Source of the DNA: a virus
Strand: one strand, 5' to 3'
Length of the DNA stretch: 64,000 nucleotides
IMG/VR virus record: IMGVR_UViG_3300025005_000002
Span: 64,001-128,000 of that record
The stretch's first letter is position 1. The number at the start of each line of letters is the position of its first letter. The position numbers and the translations under genes were made by a program. This document shows positions 1-63,549 of the stretch, one piece after another. The notes under the pieces were generated by a model. The model had not been told where the DNA came from. It searched no databases and saw only the letters and a program-made list of their open reading frames with translations.

Positions 1-29
1 TAAATAAGATAAAGAAGCTGGAACGGTTA

Positions 30-578
30 ATGCGTGATAAAGAAGAGCACGTTGTTGCGGCCCAAATTGATTTGGTAAATTATATTAGAGATCTTGAGGA
101 AACAAGGACTGAATACCAGGTAGCCCGTATTGATACACCAGAGTTTGCGGAAATTAAAGGTATAGAATTTGATAGATTAATGACCCATCCAGACATAGAA
201 GGTTTATTAATAGATGAAAATTATATTACTATATTTACTGGGCCAATTTATATTGAATATCACAATAAAGTGTATGATATTGGTAAATTTAAAATTGTTT
301 TATCAATTAATCCGAGGAATTTTATTGTAAAAATGCAAAATTTGACCAGGTCATTAAATGGTACAGCTCATCCACATGTGTATGAAAATGGAGATCCATG
401 TCTTGGTAATATCCAAGAATGTTTACCTCAAATGATTGCAGGGTATCAATATGCAGCAGCGATTTCAGTGTGTATCCAATATTTGAAATCAGTTAATGAG
501 GATGGTGGACATCGTTCAAAGATCACAAATTGGCCTTTAAAAAAGGCTAAGAAAGAAGAGGAAAATGACAAAAAGTAG
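30..578 (+). CDS. Prokaryotic E2 (ubiquitin-conjugating-like) domain protein; probably 5'-truncated by the window edge
   Basis: HPHV-x5-CLGN motif typical of prokaryotic E2 families, with putative catalytic Cys. The frame is open from position 3. First gene of an E2-JAB-E1-Ubl run. Confidence 0.7.
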   Translation: MRDKEEHVVAAQIDLVNYIRDLEETRTEYQVARIDTPEFAEIKGIEFDRLMTHPDIEGLLIDENYITIFTGPIYIEYHNKVYDIGKFKIVLSINPRNFIVKMQNLTRSLNGTAHPHVYENGDPCLGNIQECLPQMIAGYQYAAAISVCIQYLKSVNEDGGHRSKITNWPLKKAKKEEENDKK

Positions 579-1308
579 ATATTATGATGGGTATTTAAAT
601 GGAGATTATGGGGGTGGTTGGGATGGTATGTATGTACACACACCTGCTCCGGCCAGGCCCTTGGTACCACACGTAGCAGAAACAAAAGTGGAACGTCTGG
701 GTGCAAATGAAATCCCAAATATCCTTATTTCTATAGAGGCCCTTCGTGATATGAATTATATCATGCAGGAGAGTGGTACTGAAGAAATATCATGGCTTGG
801 GTCTGTGAAAGAGACTGAGAATGGTGGGTATTTAATCGAGAAAGTATTTTTATTTAAGCAATCAGTAAGTTATGAACATACCGAAATTGATCAGAACAGT
901 GTCAGCCAATTTTATATTGACATGCTCAAGGCCAACCCAAACAACAAGGCTATGTTGAATCGTATTCTCTTCTGGGGACATGTTCATCCTGGTAGTTGGG
1001 TTGGACCATCTGCACAGGATGAGAATCAGATGGATCTGTTTGCGCACAATAAATATTTTATCCGTGGGATATTTTCCAGAGAAGGGCACTGTTCTTTCAC
1101 GTTCTTCGATTACGAACGTAAGTTGAAGATTGTTGATTGCCCATGGCAAATCGATGTTAAGGTTGGCCATGATGAAAACCGCAGGAAAGAAATCGCCAAA
1201 GAGATTAAAAAGAAGGTAACTCATGGAGGAGGGTATATATGGCAAGGGACAAAGGGGGAAGGCTGGTGGAAGGAAAAGGACAAGAGCCTGATTTCTGGCG
1301 ACAGTTAG
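565..1308 (+). CDS. JAB/MPN+ metalloprotease (deubiquitinase-like)
   Basis: N-terminal Glu (EEISWLG) plus WGHVHPG-x4-PSAQD, matching the JAMM HxH-x7-S-x2-D motif; overlaps the E2 stop. Confidence 0.85.
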   Translation: MTKSRYYDGYLNGDYGGGWDGMYVHTPAPARPLVPHVAETKVERLGANEIPNILISIEALRDMNYIMQESGTEEISWLGSVKETENGGYLIEKVFLFKQSVSYEHTEIDQNSVSQFYIDMLKANPNNKAMLNRILFWGHVHPGSWVGPSAQDENQMDLFAHNKYFIRGIFSREGHCSFTFFDYERKLKIVDCPWQIDVKVGHDENRRKEIAKEIKKKVTHGGGYIWQGTKGEGWWKEKDKSLISGDS

Positions 1309-1940
1309 ATATCTTTTCGCCAACGAAGTTTAAGACGCCAGTTACTGTAATTGGCGCGGGTGCTACGGGCTCATACATCACTATGCTCCTTGCCAAAATG
1401 GGATGTAAGGATATTACAGTGTATGATGATGATGGAGTAGAGAATTACAATCTACCGAATCAAATATTTAGGATTAAGGATATTGGGGCCAAAAAAGTCC
1501 ATGCTATAGCTGAAATGGTGTTGGATGCAACCGGTGTTAAGATCAAAGCAATCCCCAAAAAATTCACTGGAGGACCGTTAAAGGGAATCGTTTTTGTTCT
1601 TACTGATACTATGAAAAGTCGGAAACAGATATGGGATAAGTCAGTGAAATATCAACTAGCCGTTGATCTATTAATTGAAACCAGGATGGAGGCTGAGGGA
1701 GGGAGGATATACGTAGTTAAGCCAACAATTCCTGCGCAAGTGGAGGCGTATGAAAAAACACTCTATTCAGACGAGGAGGCTGAAGAATCTGTGTGTACAC
1801 GTCGCGCTATTGCTCCTACAGTAGACACAATCGCTGGGATGGCAGTATTCTCTATGCTCAATTTCGTTAACAACAAACCATTTCCAAATGAAATAATTTT
1901 GTCGTTGTCTCCGATGTTAATCATCAATAAAAAATTCTAA
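1239..1940 (+). CDS. ThiF/E1-like Ubl-activating enzyme
   Basis: VIGAGATGS nucleotide-binding loop, YDDDGVENYNLPNQ motif, candidate catalytic Cys in ESVCT, no CxxC Zn pairs. An alternative GTG start lies at 1266. Confidence 0.9.
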   Translation: MARDKGGRLVEGKGQEPDFWRQLDIFSPTKFKTPVTVIGAGATGSYITMLLAKMGCKDITVYDDDGVENYNLPNQIFRIKDIGAKKVHAIAEMVLDATGVKIKAIPKKFTGGPLKGIVFVLTDTMKSRKQIWDKSVKYQLAVDLLIETRMEAEGGRIYVVKPTIPAQVEAYEKTLYSDEEAEESVCTRRAIAPTVDTIAGMAVFSMLNFVNNKPFPNEIILSLSPMLIINKKF

Positions 1941-1954
1941 GGAGGATTAGAACA

Positions 1955-2185
1955 ATGACTGAGTCTAACAAGGGTGAGAATATTATTACCATCGGCAAGA
2001 TCCCAGGTCAGCTGCATGAACTGGCAATTGATGGGAAGAAGAAGATCTGCGAGTTATTTGGTCTGATTGGGATTAAGGATTTGGGTAGCTGCGAGATCCA
2101 GAAGAACGGGAACAGCGCCGAAGTTAACGAATACGTCGAGGCCGGGGATACGGTTTTGGCGGTGGCCAAGATTCGTGGAAACTAA
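1955..2185 (+). CDS. Ubiquitin-like (beta-grasp) protein, C-terminus KIRGN
   Basis: 76 aa, strong RBS (aggagg), ThiS/MoaD-like ending GDTVLAVAKIRG-N, directly after E1. Confidence 0.7.
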   Translation: MTESNKGENIITIGKIPGQLHELAIDGKKKICELFGLIGIKDLGSCEIQKNGNSAEVNEYVEAGDTVLAVAKIRGN

Positions 2186-2217
2186 AACTGCGACGCACCC
2201 TACTAAGAGAGATAAAT

Positions 2218-2909
2218 ATGGGGTATATATAGAACTTGCTAACAATGTAGTAGAAGATTGGATAGCAAGAAAATATATCCCAACCATAAAAGAATTTGCG
2301 CCATATACAAGTAGGGATATTAAAAATATGCTGTCTGTAATTGCTTTCAGGTCTATATATGTTAAAAATATTTCGTGGGCGATTATAACCTGCGAAATAA
2401 TCCAGGATTTTGTATATGTGTGCAGAAAGCTTGGGGTAACCACATTGGTTGATGCTGGATGTGGGCATGGTGTATTGGCCCACGCATTGCGAGAAAAAGG
2501 TCTCGCGGTTGACGCTATAAACGCGGACAAAGATAAGTATCATGAAATCTACCGGTCATGGGGTAATGTTATAAGGGGGGATGCTGTTAAATTTATTGAA
2601 GAAAACGTCAATAAATTTGATGGTGTAATTTTATCATGGCCCCCATATGATGAATCTTTTGCGACAGAGGTAGTAAATGTAATGCGTACTGGTCAGTTAT
2701 TGTTTTATTGTGGTGAAGGAAGAGGTGGGTGTACTGGGGACAAATATTTTCATGGTGCTCTTGATGATTGGTATGATTGGGGCGATGATAAGGTGGAGCC
2801 TCCTCCAATAACATTTGCTTTCTTAAAAGAAGAGTCTGAGCGTATAAATAAGCATTTCTTACAATTTCTTAATATACATGATCGTTGGAGGGTTTATATT
2901 AAGAAATAA
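2218..2909 (+). CDS. Class I SAM-dependent methyltransferase (apparent 1-nt frameshift just after the start)
   Basis: LVDAGCGHG motif I and ILSWPPY motif. The RBS-preceded ATG at 2218 is out of frame with the body by one G in the G-run 2220-2223; the next in-frame ATG is at 2328. Confidence 0.7.
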
Positions 2910-3183: not shown

Positions 3184-3897
3184 ATGATAATGGCACTAGT
3201 ACTTGGGGATGTTCATGGTAGGTATGATAAGGCCAAAGCCTTTTTAGAATATAAACCAGAGATTTTACACGTTTTTGCTGGTGATTATGTCGATTCCTTT
3301 AATCAGCCCGATGCAATTATTTACGGAACATTAAAGTTGGTAATTGAGTCAGACGCAAAGTTATTGCTTGGTAATCACGATATTCATTATCTGGATGGAT
3401 CGCCATTTAGATGTTCAGGATATAGACAACACACGGCCAAATCACTTAATCAGATTTTTGAATCGTTCATCGAACGATTTGTGCCAGCTTTTGTAGAGGA
3501 TGGGTTTGTTATTATCCATGGTGGGATTTCTAATGGGTTGGGGAATAGCCTATTTAAAACAACAAACGTTACCAATATTTTAGATATAATCAATTCTGAA
3601 TGGGATTTTTTTTTAAAGAATAGAAGACACCATTACCCACAACAGAGTAGAATATTTTATATACCAAAATCTCGTGGTGGTTCTAATGGATATGGGGGGA
3701 TATTTTGGGCAGATTATCGAGATGAAGAATTTTATGGTGTCCCACAGGTATTTGGTCATTCTAAAACATCTAACGGAGTAACCCAAGTATTGTCAAACCA
3801 TTGGGCTCTTGGATGTGATGACGAGAAGTTTGAATGTTTTAATACGGCCACAAAAGAGGTGGAATATTTTGGACCCACCATTCAAGATGCAGCCTAA
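3184..3897 (+). CDS. Calcineurin-like metallophosphoesterase
   Basis: GDVHG, GDYVD, LGNHD, HGG and FGHS motifs. Confidence 0.9.
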   Translation: MIMALVLGDVHGRYDKAKAFLEYKPEILHVFAGDYVDSFNQPDAIIYGTLKLVIESDAKLLLGNHDIHYLDGSPFRCSGYRQHTAKSLNQIFESFIERFVPAFVEDGFVIIHGGISNGLGNSLFKTTNVTNILDIINSEWDFFLKNRRHHYPQQSRIFYIPKSRGGSNGYGGIFWADYRDEEFYGVPQVFGHSKTSNGVTQVLSNHWALGCDDEKFECFNTATKEVEYFGPTIQDAA

Positions 3898-4568: not shown

Positions 4569-5063
4569 ATGTCTACCAGACCAATTCTAAGATCAGTTAT
4601 ATTATTAATTAGTACTGTATGTCTTAGTTGGTCTATCTATGGATTTATGACCTCAATCCCACAACCAGTGACACGAGTAGCAGCGATTAATAGAGCGCAA
4701 CTTGCTTTATATAAGGTCAAAGCGCCACCAGGTAAAATAAATGACCTAAGTAAAGCAGTGACAAACGCATCAGCCATGACTGATCTTTCTCCGGAATTAA
4801 TTGTGGCATTAATGAAAACAGAATCCGAATTTAATTATAAAGCAGTATCGAATAAGGGATATAAGGGATTAATGCAAACACCATGGGCTACGTTTAAGTG
4901 GGCTAGTGTGGACACATTGCATGGTGCTGAGATTTTGCGTGAGAAGTTGCGGTATAGTAGAGGCGATTTAAAGCTTGCACTTGCCTTATATAAAGGCGGG
5001 AATAACGAAGCAGCAAGAGCATATGCAACAGAAACTTTTGCTTTGTATAAGAGGTTACTTTGA
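4569..5063 (+). CDS. Lytic transglycosylase (SLT domain) with N-terminal membrane anchor
   Basis: Catalytic Glu in ALMKTESEF, KGLMQ motif, ALALYKGG (AYNAG-like); hydrophobic N-terminus; ggagg RBS. Confidence 0.85.
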   Translation: MSTRPILRSVILLISTVCLSWSIYGFMTSIPQPVTRVAAINRAQLALYKVKAPPGKINDLSKAVTNASAMTDLSPELIVALMKTESEFNYKAVSNKGYKGLMQTPWATFKWASVDTLHGAEILREKLRYSRGDLKLALALYKGGNNEAARAYATETFALYKRLL

Positions 5064-8302: not shown

Positions 8303-8380
8303 GCCTCCATAGCTCAATTGGGTAGAGCATTCGCCTTATAAGCGAAAGGTTGGTTGGTTCAATTCCACCTGGAGGCACCA
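8303..8380 (+). tRNA. tRNA-Ile(UAU)
   Basis: Acceptor gcctcca/tggaggc, D arm agctcaattgggtagagc, anticodon arm ttcgc-cttataa-gcgaa, TTCAA T-loop (one bulge in the T stem), encoded CCA. Confidence 0.9.
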
Positions 8381-8461: not shown

Positions 8462-8645
8462 CCAAAAGAAAGGAGTATCAGAAGATAAATGCTACAAATG
8501 TGGTGTAACAGATTGGATGGGAGAGCCATTAAGCAAACATCTTCATCATAAAGATGGTAATAATGAAAATAACGTAAGAGAGAATCTAGAAAATCATTGT
8601 CTAAAAACATATGCCAAGATAAAGGGGGAGTGGCGGAATTCGTAG
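8394..8645 (+). pseudogene. HNH homing endonuclease remnant between the two tRNAs
   Basis: CYKCG..WMGEPL..HLHHKDGNNENNVRENL resembles the HNH core, but the terminal CxxCH is missing and the ORF runs into tRNA-Leu. Confidence 0.6.
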
Positions 8646-8710
8646 ACGCAAGGGCCTTAAAAGCCCTTGGCCTTAGGGCCGTGAGAGTTCAATTCTCTCC
8701 TTCCACACCA
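8624..8710 (+). tRNA. tRNA-Leu(UAA)
   Basis: GGCGGAATTCGTAGACGC D arm, anticodon arm agggc-cttaaaa-gccct, long variable arm, gagag-ttcaatt-ctctc T arm, CCA end; one acceptor-stem mismatch. Confidence 0.9.
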
Positions 8711-51424: not shown

Positions 51425-51499
51425 TGCGGGGTCGCCAAGTGGTAAGGCACTAGCCTCATAAGCTAGTTATCGAGCGTTCGAATCGCTCCCCCGCAACCA
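51425..51499 (+). tRNA. tRNA with CAU anticodon (Met; Ile2 not excluded)
   Basis: tgcgggg/ccccgca acceptor, gcc-aagtggtaa-ggc D arm, ctagc-ctcataa-gctag, gagcg-ttcgaat-cgctc, ACCA end. Confidence 0.93.
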
Positions 51500-58947: not shown

Positions 58948-61900
58948 TTGAATACTATCAGTCCAAACGGATTAACAGTACTTAGAAAACGGTATCTTCG
59001 TAAGAAGGGATCAACCCACGAGACACCTGAGGAATTATTTTCACGAGTAGCCAAGGATATAGCAAGTGGTGAAGAACTTCCTAAGAAGAAGAAGGAAGAG
59101 TTAATTGAAGCATATACTAATATGATGGCTAATTTAGAATTCTTGCCAAATACGCCAACATTAGTAAATGCTGGCACTAATAATGGGTGTGCCTATGCAG
59201 CATGTTATCTACTAGATGTTGGTGACTCATTAGATGATATATTTAGCGTTTACCGTAAGGCAGCATTAATACAGAAGGCTGGTGGTGGTGTCGGTATGGA
59301 TTGGTCGAATGTCAGACCACGTGATACCCTCATTAAGTCTACGGGGTATAAGACACGCGGTGTAGTGCAGTTCATTAAGATCTATGCTGATTCCATGTCT
59401 GTGGTAGACCAGGGTGGGATTAGGCCATCTGCGAACATGGGTGTCTTATCTGTTCATCATCCAGATATTCTTGAATTCATTAATATGAAGCATTCTGGTG
59501 CTGCGCAAAATATGAACATTTCAGTAGCTATTACTGATGAGTTTATGAAGGCTAAAGATGAAGGTAAAAAATATAATTTGTATTTTCCTGTGTATGGGAA
59601 CAGGGAAAAGGCGGGCGAGTTAGATGCAAAAGATGTGTGGGATAAAATTGTAGCTATGGCTTGGCGTATTGGTGATCCGGGTATATTGTGGCTTGATCGA
59701 GCAAATAGGGATAACCCAACACCATCCCTTGGGCAACTGCGTGGAACAAACCCGTGTGTGGTTGGTGAAACGTTAATTGCTGTGGCAGATGGACGGAATG
59801 CTGTTAGTATTAAACAGCTTACAGCCGAGGGGAAAGATATTCCAGTATACTCACGTAATTTGAAAACTGGTCAGGTAGAGATTAAGTGGGGTAGAAATCC
59901 ACGTCTAACTGGTGAGAAAAAAGAGGTCTGGAAACTTACATTAGATGATAATTCAACAGTGATAGCAACACCAGACCATAGAATACCATTGAGGGATGGG
60001 GGTGAACGCGTTCTTAAAGACTTATTGCCGGGTGATAGTTTATTACCATTTAATACGTATGTGACGCATAAACGTGGGTGTGACTATAGGCAGATATGTG
60101 AGACGTCTATGCATAAGCCAAAAAATGGTAGATTGCGAGGAAGCAAACGGCAATATCAATTAATATATGATTTTTATAGTGGTGACACAAATTTTGATCC
60201 AACAATGCATGTGTTACATCATGTCTCATGTGATTCTACAGATGACGCATTTGGTAATTTATGTAAAATGACCAACCAAATGCATCAAGAGGTTCACGAC
60301 ATTACGGGTAATAAGAACCCAATGTTAAGGCTTAAGGACCCAGAAGGGTATGCGGAGCAAATGCGACAAACAATGGCAGGACTTAATAATCCCTCGTCGC
60401 GTGTGCGTGGTGCAATGCCGGTTGACGAATGGTATCAGGCAGTTGTAGCAGCCATAAAATTAAGAGTGTATACGCGGGCCCCGGGATATGAGAATGTGTT
60501 TCAATTATGTAAAAAAATGGGGATTCCCACACCAACTAAGTTTAGGTTACGAGCAATTGGGTGCCCAGAAGGAGTGGGGTTTAGAGAGAAGATTAGTAGA
60601 GATACCGGGCTACCAATGATGGTTGTTTATCCAGAGAAGAATGGATGTGCTGGATTAAATAATCCGTCTGCAAAGAAGCATGGTTCGGTTCCGGTTGATG
60701 TGTGGTATGGGAAGGTGAAGGGGCTTGTGCTTCGTAAACAAAGATTACCGACATGGAAAGAACTGCACAGATTTTATAAGGAAACTGGGATGCCTAGTCA
60801 TAAAAGATTCAGGCTTAACAGTTGTGGGGTTGATACGTTGGCCGAGTTGTGGGACCGGATTCGTGCAGAGATACTTGTGGAGCATAATATTGAGATATCA
60901 CGACAGACAAATAAATCTATAGGTACACTTGATAAGGCTGTTGCGTATTGGAATCATAAAGTAAAGTCTGTTGAATTTCATGGGTACGAAGACGTGTATA
61001 ACATTACAGTGGATGACAATCACAATTATTGTATTATAACGTCCTGGACTGATACCAAATTTATGGGGTCTAGTGGTATATGCAAATTTAATTGTGGCGA
61101 GACCTGGTTACTTCCTGGGGAAAGTTGTTGTCTTGGATCAATAAATTTGGTGGCGATGTTAAAGAAAAAGGTAGATGCTGATGGAGTGATTATATATGAG
61201 TGGGACTATGATAAGATTAATAAAACGGTGCCAATGGCAGTTAGATTTTTAGACAGTGTTCTAGATGTTAGTCCGCAACCATTGCAAGAGATTAAAGATG
61301 CGATGATGAAAACAAGGAAGATTGGTCTCGGTGTAATGGGGTTTGCTGATGCCCTGATTAAAATGAAGATACAATATAATTCGATGCAAGGACTTGAACA
61401 AGCTGAGCATATTATGGGGTATATCAATACCAAGGCGATGGATGTTAGTGTTGAATTGGGGAAAGAAAAAGGAGTATTTCCAGCCTGGGAGTTAGATAAA
61501 TTGGGTACTGCTCGTAGAAATGCTATAGTTACTACAATTGCACCCACTGGATCAATCTCCCTTATCGCTGGAGTATCTTCTGGTATTGAACCTGTGTATG
61601 CTATAGCGTATACACGTATGGCGTTTGGTGATAAGAAGCTGAGTGAATTGCATGCGGATTTTGATGAAGAGATGCGTAGGCGTAGTATAAATATACCAGA
61701 TATGTTTGATGTTATTTTTAATGAGCATAATGGCTCAATCCAAAAGATGAATATACCAGATGATATAAAACGTACATTTGTTACTGCCCATGACATTTTG
61801 CCAGAATGGCACGTACGAATGCAAGCTGCATTTCAGAAGCACACTGGTAATTCTATCAGTAAAACAATTAACATGAAGAAGGATTCAACAATTGAAGACA

Positions 61901-62508
61901 TCGATGAAGCCTACAGGCTCTCGTATAAACTTGGATGTAAAGGAGTCACGATATATAGAGATGGATCGAAATCTGCTCAGATTTTATCTTCAGGTGTACA
62001 AAGCCAACCAGTGGGTCAGAATGGTGGATTTGGACCACGGGTTAGAATTGAGGCACCGACTGGACGAACTTATGAAATACCCTTTGGATTCGGGGATGCT
62101 CTTATTACCGTGAATGAAGATGACATTGGTTTGTGTGAGGTTATTGTAAAAGCTGGTAGGTCTGGGTCGCCAATTTCGGCAGAGGCTGAATCACTTGGTA
62201 GATTGGTGTCATTATTGATGAGATGTGGTGTGTCTACCAAATATATCACCAAGCAACTTCGTGGGATTTCTGCTGGTGAAACGGCATTTTATAAAAGTGG
62301 GCGTACTATTACATCATTATCAGATGCAGTTTGTGCAGCGATAGAAAATCATATAGGATATAAAATGCCAAAGGGTAGTACGCCCACAAAATATAAATAT
62401 GAGTCAGTGCTTACATATAAACAAAATTGCCCGGAGTGTGGTAATTTGGTGATTCATCAATCCAAATGTATAGAATGTTCGGCTTGCGGATGGTCAAAAT
62501 GCAAGTAA
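58948..62508 (+). CDS. nrdJ: Class II (B12-dependent) ribonucleotide reductase with an intein
   Basis: [24 protein letters not shown]|[21 protein letters not shown]-like [13 protein letters not shown]-terminal TSCPD-like domain + CPECG Zn ribbon; no ATP cone. Confidence 0.95.
59755..61092 (+). mobile_element. Intein (446 aa) with HNH-type endonuclease remnant and duplicated accessory domain
   Basis: CVVGET start, ATPDHRI block [16 protein letters not shown] end before the +1 catalytic Cys; HHVSCD..GNLCKM..H region. Confidence 0.95.
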
Positions 62509-62668
62509 ATGATGAGAAAGAAATTGGTAGAGAATTAACCGCTGAGGAAAAGGGAGACATTTTGAAGAAATTTCCTCATTGCTCTCTATGTGGATTCCCT
62601 GAGAGGGATGGTCATAAGAATATGTGTCCTAATACTGAGCCCAAACAACGCTTACTGATGGAAGCCCT

Positions 62669-62947
62669 GTGACTCCAGATCATCGGGAGATAAACCCAGA
62701 AACAGGACAGCAAAAGGGATATGTTGTGCTATCAGAAGAAGAACGAAAGAAAGGGTTTATTAGGCCAGTACGACAAGTTTATTTACATCTTACATGTAAG
62801 ACAACAACAAGGATGGGGATTGCTCTAGCAGAAACGTATGCACGAGATCCAAAATTTTATGGTGGGACATTTTGTGTAACATGTAAAAATCATTTCCCAC
62901 TTGATCAATTTTTGTGGGAAGGGACTAACGAGATAGTGGGGTCCTAA
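62669..62947 (+). CDS. Conserved small Zn-binding phage protein
   Basis: QQKGYVVLSEEER.KGF.RPVR, HLTC, AETYARDPKFY, FCVTC. Confidence 0.7.
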   Translation: MTPDHREINPETGQQKGYVVLSEEERKKGFIRPVRQVYLHLTCKTTTRMGIALAETYARDPKFYGGTFCVTCKNHFPLDQFLWEGTNEIVGS

Positions 62948-63549
62948 ATGCAAGTAAAATTTGAAGATAGTGAATTACGTGAGTATGTAAAACAGCACAT
63001 TGGTGCCGCCACTAAGTCTGTAGTACGTGCAGAAGTTGCCGCACTTATTCATGAAGAGATGGAGAAAAAATTGAGAGAGATAACTCCACATTCTATACAG
63101 GTAGCAATAAGTGGTATCCTTAATGAAAGGATTAAAAAGACTGTTGATGATGCATTTAAGGTTTTAAATGATAGTGGTGTTGATTCAACATATCCGAATT
63201 GGCATCCTCCACTGTTGTTTATTCAAAAAATGACACTTGGGATTAGAGAAGAATTAAAAGAGAAATTGTGGAAATATATATCATCTAAAATAGGGGTTGA
63301 ATTAAATACCTCTCTTAAGGAGCGCAAATGAAGAATAAAAATGTATGGGATATTAAATCAATCGAGGACATTGAAATTCCAGAGATTTTTATGGAAAACG
63401 CTAAGATGGGTATTGCAAGGATTCAGTTTGAGTCCTTAAAGGTTAAGGAATTGCAGAAGTTGAATGAGAAACTTGATAGGTTAATTGCTGTTATGACACC
63501 GTCAAATGTTAAGGTTGCAAAAGGTTCTGCGAAGGGAGATGGACAGTGA
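62948..63549 (+). other. Two hypothetical ORFs (62948-63331, 63328-63549)
   Basis: Coupled ORFs. Confidence 0.6.

Follow-up and report, generated by a model that had tools for sequence, protein, structure and literature searches.

A phage-borne E2-JAB-E1-Ubl cassette as a probable ubiquitin-like protein-conjugation cascade

A four-gene cassette and its described relatives

Ubiquitin-like conjugation in bacteria has so far been studied as an anti-phage defence of the host, in the Bil operons, in the cyclic-oligonucleotide-based anti-phage signalling system (CBASS) with Cap2/Cap3 and probably in Bub. Here we describe the full machinery on the phage side, as a cassette of four genes that encode, in order, an E2-like conjugating enzyme (E2), a JAB/JAMM metallopeptidase (JAB), a minimal E1-like adenylating enzyme (E1) and a ubiquitin-like beta-grasp modifier (Ubl). 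The cassette occupies positions 1-2185, plus strand, of a 64,000-nucleotide stretch (the window, positions 64001-128000) of the 178,008-bp IMG/VR virus record IMGVR_UViG_3300025005_000002 (Table 1). We consider it probable, at roughly 70%, that these genes form a working phage-encoded ubiquitin-like protein-conjugation cascade, a reading that draws on sequence motifs and modelled structures. The identities of the four proteins, their catalytic residues, the conserved operon, its viral setting and its wide occurrence in phages follow from sequence or fold; every chemical step, the independence from an E3 ligase and the targets are what we infer from them.

The cassette has all four features of the prokaryotic E1-E2-JAB-Ubl conjugation operons (the general class; Iyer et al. 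2006, group 6). Among the described systems, Bil (BilABCD, Type I/II; ‘ISG15-like’ or 6C-6D operons) likewise comprises four genes for a Ubl, an E2, a JAB deubiquitinase and an E1, its JAB pre-processes Ubls that carry residues after the conserved Gly, some of its Ubls contain several beta-grasp domains, and dimerization of its E2 has been suggested (10.1101/2023.09.26.559546). The present cassette would work like Bil but lacks three features by which Bil is defined: the gene order is E2-JAB-E1-Ubl here and in most relatives, as opposed to Ubl-E2-deubiquitinase-E1 in Bil (10.1101/2023.09.26.559546); the E1 is a 233-amino-acid (aa) protein with its Cys in the crossover loop, in contrast to the multidomain Bil E1 with a mobile CYS domain; and the E2 carries Pro-His before its Cys, together with a coiled-coil N-terminus, in place of the Cys...His arrangement (CEHH) of Bil. 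In addition, the residue after the conserved Gly is variable in Bil and an invariant Asn here, and Bil lies in defence islands whereas this cassette is mostly phage-borne. A first-pass annotation of the window had pointed to Bil among similar bacterial operons. The cassette is no singular capture of a Bil-like defence system; it belongs to a family of its own, for which Pfam has no model and which occurs commonly in uncultivated phages.

Bub (6E) and CBASS Cap2/Cap3 (6B) also couple E1-superfamily adenylation to an E2-like domain and a peptidase. Bub, however, forms oxyesters, has an E1 that lacks the Cys and is fused to a peptidase, and includes a serine protease (PMC11601596), whereas in the phage cassette the Cys of both E1 and E2 is invariant and a JAMM enzyme encoded on its own serves as the peptidase. 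In CBASS, Cap2 fuses E1 and E2, and what it conjugates is a cyclase rather than a beta-grasp Ubl.

The first-pass annotation had called a complete cassette of overlapping or adjacent genes with the hallmark motifs, and on this point our analysis concurs: all open reading frames (ORFs) lie where it placed them and the catalytic motifs are invariant across homologs. The genes are tightly packed, with overlaps of 14 nt between E2 and JAB and 70 nt between JAB and E1 and a gap of 14 nt between E1 and Ubl, and the signals of the cassette – ORFs, motifs and folds – are far beyond chance. As had also been recognized, the window edge cuts the E2 gene, the start of which lies 55 nt ahead of the window with 19 codons outside it; the ATG at position 30 is internal, because homologs align from the upstream start at L003:9946. 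A scan for promoters and terminators gave signal at the level of shuffled sequence.

Table 1. Coordinates of the cassette genes, related loci and other features. Window positions count from record position 64001; L003 is record 54001-66500.
Feature	Position	Strand	Features or matches
E2-like conjugating enzyme, short paralog, 210 aa	window 1..578 (ORF 3/30-578); full gene L003:9946-10578	+	N-terminal coiled coil, C-terminal UBC-like domain, H142-P-H144-x7-C152
JAB/JAMM metallopeptidase, 247 aa	window 565..1308	+	full JAMM signature
Minimal E1-like adenylating enzyme, 233 aa	window 1239..1940	+	ThiF domain only (Pfam ThiF)
Ubl beta-grasp modifier, 76 aa	window 1955..2185	+	C-terminus Lys-Ile-Arg-Gly-Asn; AF2 model, fold matches
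Second E2 paralog, 289 aa	L003:9042-9911	same as cassette	58% identical; directly after the DUF1360 gene, upstream of the cassette
Third E2 paralog, 308 aa	L003:514-1440		8.5 kb further upstream
Upstream block	L003:6693-9045 (record 60693-63045)	same as cassette	Mpa/VCP-type AAA+ ATPase 589 aa, 75-aa ORF, DUF1360 membrane protein
Tandem Ubl genes, viral contigs	L037:1872-2525; L033:6672-7088; L027:2788-3576; L045:6638-7132		2-3 head-to-tail Ubl repeats
Cellular eight-E2 array, 1.16-Mb metagenome contig	L004:7140-15614		JAB-E1-Ubl, eight tandem E2 paralogs, then an unrelated AAA ATPase
Block of crAss-like phage cr85_1	L015:1667-4651		370-420-aa protein, JAMM-motif protein, ThiF
Block of Flavobacterium phage FpV4	L014:1548-4618		370-420-aa protein, JAMM-motif protein, ThiF
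Methyltransferase-like ORF	window 2067-2909		phrog_19090 5.9e-15; weak Pfam methyltransferase matches
Calcineurin-like metallophosphatase	window 3184-3897		Pfam 1.3e-11
SLT lytic transglycosylase	window 4569-5063		Pfam 9.4e-11; N-terminal membrane segment
tRNA genes	window 8303-8380, 8624-8710, 51425-51499		Ile(TAT), Leu(TAA), Met(CAT)
Ribonucleotide reductase large subunit, 1,186 aa	window 58948-62508		PHROG matches at residues 7-211 and 726-1186
984-aa ORF	L022:2893-5847 (record 146893-149847)		LAGLIDADG and intein-splicing domain matches

Distribution in phages and cells

The record that holds the cassette is 92% complete by CheckV and carries an HK97-type major capsid gene (Pfam Phage_capsid_4, 6.9e-48) along with genes for DnaE, a primase-helicase, helicases, ribonucleotide reductase, DNA ligase and an HNH endonuclease, nearly all genes lying on one strand, which upholds the earlier placement of this machinery in a virus. 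A scan with the E1 alignment found the same type of E1 on 122 IMG/VR viral contigs, and our counts of viral loci cover the best 80 of these 122. With narrow hidden Markov models (HMMs), all four genes were detected in 23 of the 80 loci and E2, JAB and E1 in 19 more, while BLAST clustering recovered JAB in 77, Ubl in 63 and E2 in 52 of them, with the same relative positions and with E2-JAB-E1-Ubl as the usual order. Several cassette-bearing records are 100% complete, at 185-207 kb, and two of them have terminal repeats. An occurrence on more than 100 viral contigs, complete genomes included, is no single capture, and tagging proteins in this way seems to be a common tool among phages rather than solely a bacterial defence.

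Scans of IMG/VR that started from the E2 were far less productive, as a pattern scan found nothing with the single E2 and one contig with the E2 alignment. Neither megablast of the first 6 kb nor tblastn of the E2 gave a match among GenBank phages. As a lead only, in the ESM Atlas the E2 adjoins ‘hypothetical’ clusters in which viral sequences make up 69-82% of the classified members. The literature that we searched, which leaves most subscription journals outside its coverage, so that a prior description is possible, contained no account of this E2 family or of an E2-JAB-E1-Ubl cassette borne by a phage.

The commonest other neighbour of the viral cassettes is DnaB (27 of 80 loci), with an AAA_24 recombinase-type ATPase in 14 of 80, and the remaining conserved neighbours are proteins without assigned function. 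Because many large phages carry the cassette in or near their replication or early modules, a function at the time of infection (takeover, counter-defence or control of phage proteins) is in our view likelier than superinfection exclusion, and our guess is that takeover or counter-defence, exerted on proteins of host or phage while infection proceeds, is the most likely role. The roles raised by the first-pass annotation, namely tagging of host proteins, protection of virion proteins and countering a host Ubl defence, are likewise conjecture. An alternative in which the cascade is an anti-phage, superinfection-excluding system carried by the phage, tagging a structural protein of competing phages as Bil does, seems to us unlikely. 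Related E1/E2/JAB systems (Bil, CBASS Cap2/Cap3 and probably Bub) do act in defence, and the sporadic cellular copies, in 3 of 401 Patescibacteria genomes sampled, form a pattern typical of accessory conflict systems; but the cassette recurs in large, apparently lytic-type phages, beside DnaB, recombinase and replication genes and not in moron-like or lysogeny regions, and the PADLOC defence models match the nucleotide-binding region of E1 (CBASS E1-E2 models) and, weakly, JAB, with no match to E2 or Ubl.

Those cellular copies are rarer than the viral ones and lie on chromosomes of ultra-small bacteria of the candidate phyla radiation (CPR), among which this phage has its nearest relatives. 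An operon with the order E2-JAB-E1-Ubl occurs in a Saccharibacteria metagenome-assembled genome of ~1 Mb (L005/L007), in a second genome of ~1.1 Mb (L008) and in further cellular loci (L006, L011, L012, and L010, where it stands beside ribosomal protein genes and secY), and a cellular metagenome contig carries, after JAB-E1-Ubl, an array of eight E2 paralogs, which is an extreme expansion of this gene (L004, Table 1). The phage E1 is 71% identical to the Saccharibacteria copy, which fits a CPR host and recent exchange. In an E1 tree (FastTree, 215 columns, rooted on the crAss/FpV4 enzymes, with viral sampling biased by construction) the copy of this phage clusters with the cellular ones from CPR and with a single viral contig (L026), and the radiation around this cluster is mostly viral.

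A more distant likeness extends to cultured or reference phages. In crAss-like phages and Flavobacterium phage FpV4, a ThiF-like gene ~32% identical to the E1 follows a protein with an exact HxHx7SxxD JAMM motif and weak Prok-JAB matches, and the JAB-ThiF pair lies in the replication module beside primase, uracil-DNA glycosylase and exonuclease genes. However, the E2, JAB and Ubl profiles do not match these neighbours, and no Ubl ending in Gly-Asn was seen there. The JAB-ThiF block may be a distant version of the cassette, and the 370-420-aa protein upstream of the JAMM-motif protein (Table 1) might be a diverged E2, given that a crAss-like virus protein of 373 aa is among the viral fold matches of the E2 model described below. 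If the cassette is active, it would suggest a testable function for this possibly related gene pair of culturable phages.

The four proteins and the proposed cascade

We take the 210-aa protein to be a diverged E2 of predicted UBC fold, for which the motif and operon evidence is strong and the fold evidence moderate. The active-site loop of classical E2s such as UbcH5 reads HPN-x7-C, and the phage protein keeps this spacing, the Pro and an Asn-Gly at the same place, with an invariant His where UbcH5 has its catalytic Asn. The block H142-P-H144-x7-C152-L-G-N is invariant in 33 homologous sequences; in the wider viral set the first motif position varies (H/A/G), P-H and C-x-G are kept, and PH-x6-8-C-x-G is present in most members. 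No invariant His follows the Cys, the conserved P-H preceding it by 7 residues. The protein differs further from classical eukaryotic and archaeal E2s in its extra strands, its N-terminal coiled coil and, within the region scanned by Pfam, the lack of a RING or HECT E3 partner, and Pfam UQ_con (PF00179) does not match it. Nor does any other Pfam (E ≤ 1), PADLOC or PHROG model; 56 diverse family members are without any Pfam domain, and a profile of the family run against PDB sequences returned coiled-coil noise only and no E2 enzyme. The family itself is large: with a cut-off of E ≤ 1e-3 a profile search of 1.84 billion cluster representatives recovered 4,142 relatives, and with E ≤ 1e-30 it recovered 417.

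The structural evidence comes from an AlphaFold2 (AF2) model built from the alignment, with a predicted local distance difference test (pLDDT) score of 89.5. In this model a long helix over residues 18-61, in agreement with the coiled-coil N-terminus seen at first pass, precedes a second helix, a beta-meander, the Cys loop and two helices. Foldseek matches to the PDB are almost exclusively ubiquitin-conjugating enzymes (best E 0.02, probability up to 0.98), and VIA, which is independent of Foldseek, returned UBE2S (Z 6.5, 121 residues aligned, root-mean-square deviation 4.8) as well as other E2s and RWD domains (Z 6.0-6.5 over ~120 residues), a middling level. Among viral models (BFVD) the matches are uncharacterized proteins of uncultured phages, a 373-aa protein of a crAss-like virus (probability 0.91) and the E2s of giant viruses and African swine fever virus.

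The phage encodes three such paralogs (Table 1), all of which keep HPH...PCLGN. Of the two beyond the cassette, one bears an N-terminal domain of 80 aa, which the ‘long’ forms of relatives also conserve, and the other an acidic, disordered C-terminal tail. Multiple paralogs are found elsewhere too, with at least two in 12 of the 42 E2-positive viral loci and eight in tandem in L004. Across 52 E2 domain matches on viral contigs, the coiled-coil-plus-domain unit sits at the C-terminal end of the ORF, followed by a median of 36 residues, and the regions N-terminal to it differ greatly in length.

The E1 is recognized by Pfam ThiF (E=1.6e-23) and phrog_15670 (6.7e-25), and its best PDB sequence matches are ThiF, MccB and Uba1. 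Its invariant residues comprise GxGxxGS, D63/D65, N71, N74-Q75, K86, D123, R128, R149 and C186, the last at the crossover-loop position, where a Cys is present in 78 of 78 sequences; the enzyme has neither a CxxC zinc site nor an inserted Cys domain. The JAB, for which HMM support is weak (PADLOC JAB, E 0.016), carries the JAMM signature E74 ... H139-x-H141-x7-S149-x2-D152, invariant in 22 homologs and kept in 63 of 69 distinct viral ones, and BRCC36, a JAMM deubiquitinase, is its single PDB sequence match, with an alignment that spans the motif (E 0.23). It is our candidate for the enzyme that processes Ubl precursors and removes conjugates.

No Pfam, PADLOC or PHROG model matches the Ubl, the AF2 model of which (pLDDT 82.4) has the beta-beta-alpha-beta-beta topology of a beta-grasp fold. 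Foldseek relates this model with probability 1.00 to MoaD, SAMP1, TtuB, NEDD8 and ubiquitin, and in VIA it matches an archaeal ThiS-like protein, MoaD and BubA with Z 8.0-8.7, so that BubA of the Bub system (Z 8.0) is among the best structural matches. Eight close homologs all read K-I-(R/K)-G-N at the end, some with 1-3 residues more, and 39 of 42 distinct viral Ubl domains have G-N at the end of the model: 18 terminate at this point, 8 extend by one or two variable residues (N, K, L, VR), and 13 continue directly into another Ubl repeat or a long tail. The exceptions include one S-N, in which the Gly is lost and the Asn kept, and one G-G, with Gly at the Asn position.

Ubl repeats in tandem are encoded by many relatives. 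In four such genes on viral contigs (Table 1) each repeat ends in K-G-N and the last is followed by a one-residue cap. These two- and three-repeat genes (e.g. in L037) resemble polyubiquitin genes down to the short variable cap at the end, although their repeats end in Gly-Asn and those of polyubiquitin in Gly-Gly. In cellular relatives, the Ubl with its Gly-Asn end is joined to a coiled coil or to additional beta-grasp domains. Features associated with eukaryotes are here found in a phage family: tandem genes that resemble those of polyubiquitin and are capped at the end, and an E2 loop similar to HPN.

In the cascade that we propose, the ThiF-type E1 would adenylate the Ubl at its C-terminus and then bind it as a thioester on Cys186, from which the Ubl would move to Cys152 of the E2-like proteins, in the xPH-x7-C active site. 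The E2s would transfer it to lysines of the target without an E3, the choice of target probably being set by their coiled coil and by the extensions in which the three paralogs vary. The JAMM peptidase would trim Ubl precursors, a capped monomer here and tandem repeats in relatives, and would also remove the tag. Tandem repeats and long-tail Ubl fusions need cleavage, so that processing would be required in many members of the family, which fits the presence of the JAB.

Several observations weigh against this reading. The Ubl ends in Gly-Asn rather than in Gly, its conserved Gly being penultimate; the E1 reads NLPNQ, without the Arg of NLxRQ and with Asn in 75 of 78 sequences, and lacks the ubiquitin-fold domain that docks the E2; the fold match of the E2 is moderate (Foldseek E ~0.02, VIA Z 6.5) and no E2 sequence model matches it; no target, E3 or reader was identified; and an Mpa-like AAA+ ATPase gene that lies upstream of the cassette in this phage was not found within 6 kb of it in the other 80 viral loci.

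The first of these points leads to a rival in which the same enzymes perform other chemistry: the mature modifier would end in Asn, the E1 would activate this Asn in the manner of MccB, and attachment would proceed through an Asn or cyclic-imide intermediate. MccB, the E1-superfamily enzyme of microcin C7, has a natural substrate ending in Asn, the peptide MccA, on which it carries out adenylation and then succinimide formation (PMC11118369), and it is among the best PDB sequence matches of the phage E1. The conservation of the Ubl runs through the Asn, with variable residues after it, and together with the single S-N and the single G-G sequence this pattern favours a functionally essential Asn. 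The resemblance to MccB has limits, however, as the match is restricted to the shared nucleotide-binding region, MccA is a 7-residue peptide where the substrate here is a beta-grasp protein with an encoded Asn end, the product is a phosphoramidate antibiotic, and neither an E2 nor a JAB takes part. Every beta-grasp modifier known so far is activated at a C-terminal Gly (PMC11118369), and Type II BilA also has a one-residue cap after its conserved Gly (10.1101/2023.09.26.559546). JAMM peptidases cut after Gly, and the invariant Asn could equally be the P1' residue of the JAB; cleavage may fall after the Gly, with Asn as an obligatory P1', or after the Asn as the mature end, both being compatible with the sequences. 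Finally, no covariation was found between the NQ motif of the E1 and the three Ubls without G-N. We hold activation at Asn to be a tentative possibility.

Somewhat more doubtful still is a large, mainly phage-borne family in which an Asn-ended modifier, often encoded by tandem genes, is activated by the minimal E1 with chemistry like that of MccB (an Asn adenylate or cyclic imide) and passed by E3-independent coiled-coil E2 paralogs to targets of host or phage during infection; were it true, it would add a novel conjugation chemistry and a further level at which phages control infected cells. If the cassette is active as a conjugation cascade, phages would own a programmable protein marking in the infected cell, with several E2 paralogs of differing extensions, and the invariant Gly-Asn end may point to an activation chemistry unseen for any beta-grasp modifier.

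The minimal, ThiF-like E1 and the closest folds of the Ubl, which include MoaD, ThiS and TtuB, would also suit a sulfur-carrier system of the ThiS/MoaD-ThiF type, in which the JAB unmasks the carrier and the phage obtains a cofactor, tRNA or DNA base in thiolated form. There are named precedents for such unmasking in Mec+/CysO and QbsD/QbsE, GenBank phage records label related genes ‘thiamine biosynthesis protein ThiF’, and nucleotide and replication genes adjoin the cassette. We nevertheless regard this explanation as very improbable. No sulfurtransferase, rhodanese, MoaE, ThiG or TtuA-type partner was seen among the conserved neighbours, in most loci a conserved E2-like protein with an invariant Cys stands beside the E1, the C-terminus of the carrier is G-N and not G-G, and the E1 is without zinc-binding CxxC pairs. 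We know, moreover, of no tandem polyprotein repeats among sulfur carriers, and the Ubl here forms them.

Genomic surroundings of the cassette

The first-pass annotation had proposed a look upstream for substrate or E3 genes. Upstream we found the two further E2 paralogs and, in the block that precedes the 289-aa paralog (Table 1), a AAA+ ATPase of the Mpa/VCP type; an E3 is not among these genes, and the region scanned by Pfam showed neither a RING nor a HECT protein, in keeping with the earlier remark that none is visible. The ATPase has its best single-domain PDB match in the proteasome ATPase of mycobacteria, its matches to MIB_HERC2 and proteasomal OB are weak, and a 20S proteasome gene (PF00227) was not found in the phage. 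As a possible ortholog we considered the AAA+ ATPase beside the eight-E2 array of L004 and rejected it, as the two are 30% identical in the AAA core only. Because that ATPase is not orthologous and none was found within 6 kb of the cassette in the 80 other viral loci, we do not count an unfoldase as part of the conserved cassette.

Downstream of the Ubl gene lie a methyltransferase-like ORF, a calcineurin-like metallophosphatase and a lytic transglycosylase (Table 1). The true start of the methyltransferase-like ORF is probably further downstream than its longest reading, since the latter overlaps the Ubl gene by ~120 nt. Three tRNA genes are found elsewhere in the window.

PHROGs run on ten large ORFs of the left arm recognized none except a DNA ligase. 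In the large subunit of ribonucleotide reductase the PHROG matches are split, and the ~500 unexplained residues between them could be an intein or an insertion. Outside the window, the 984-aa ORF with LAGLIDADG and intein-splicing matches may be an intein-bearing terminase.

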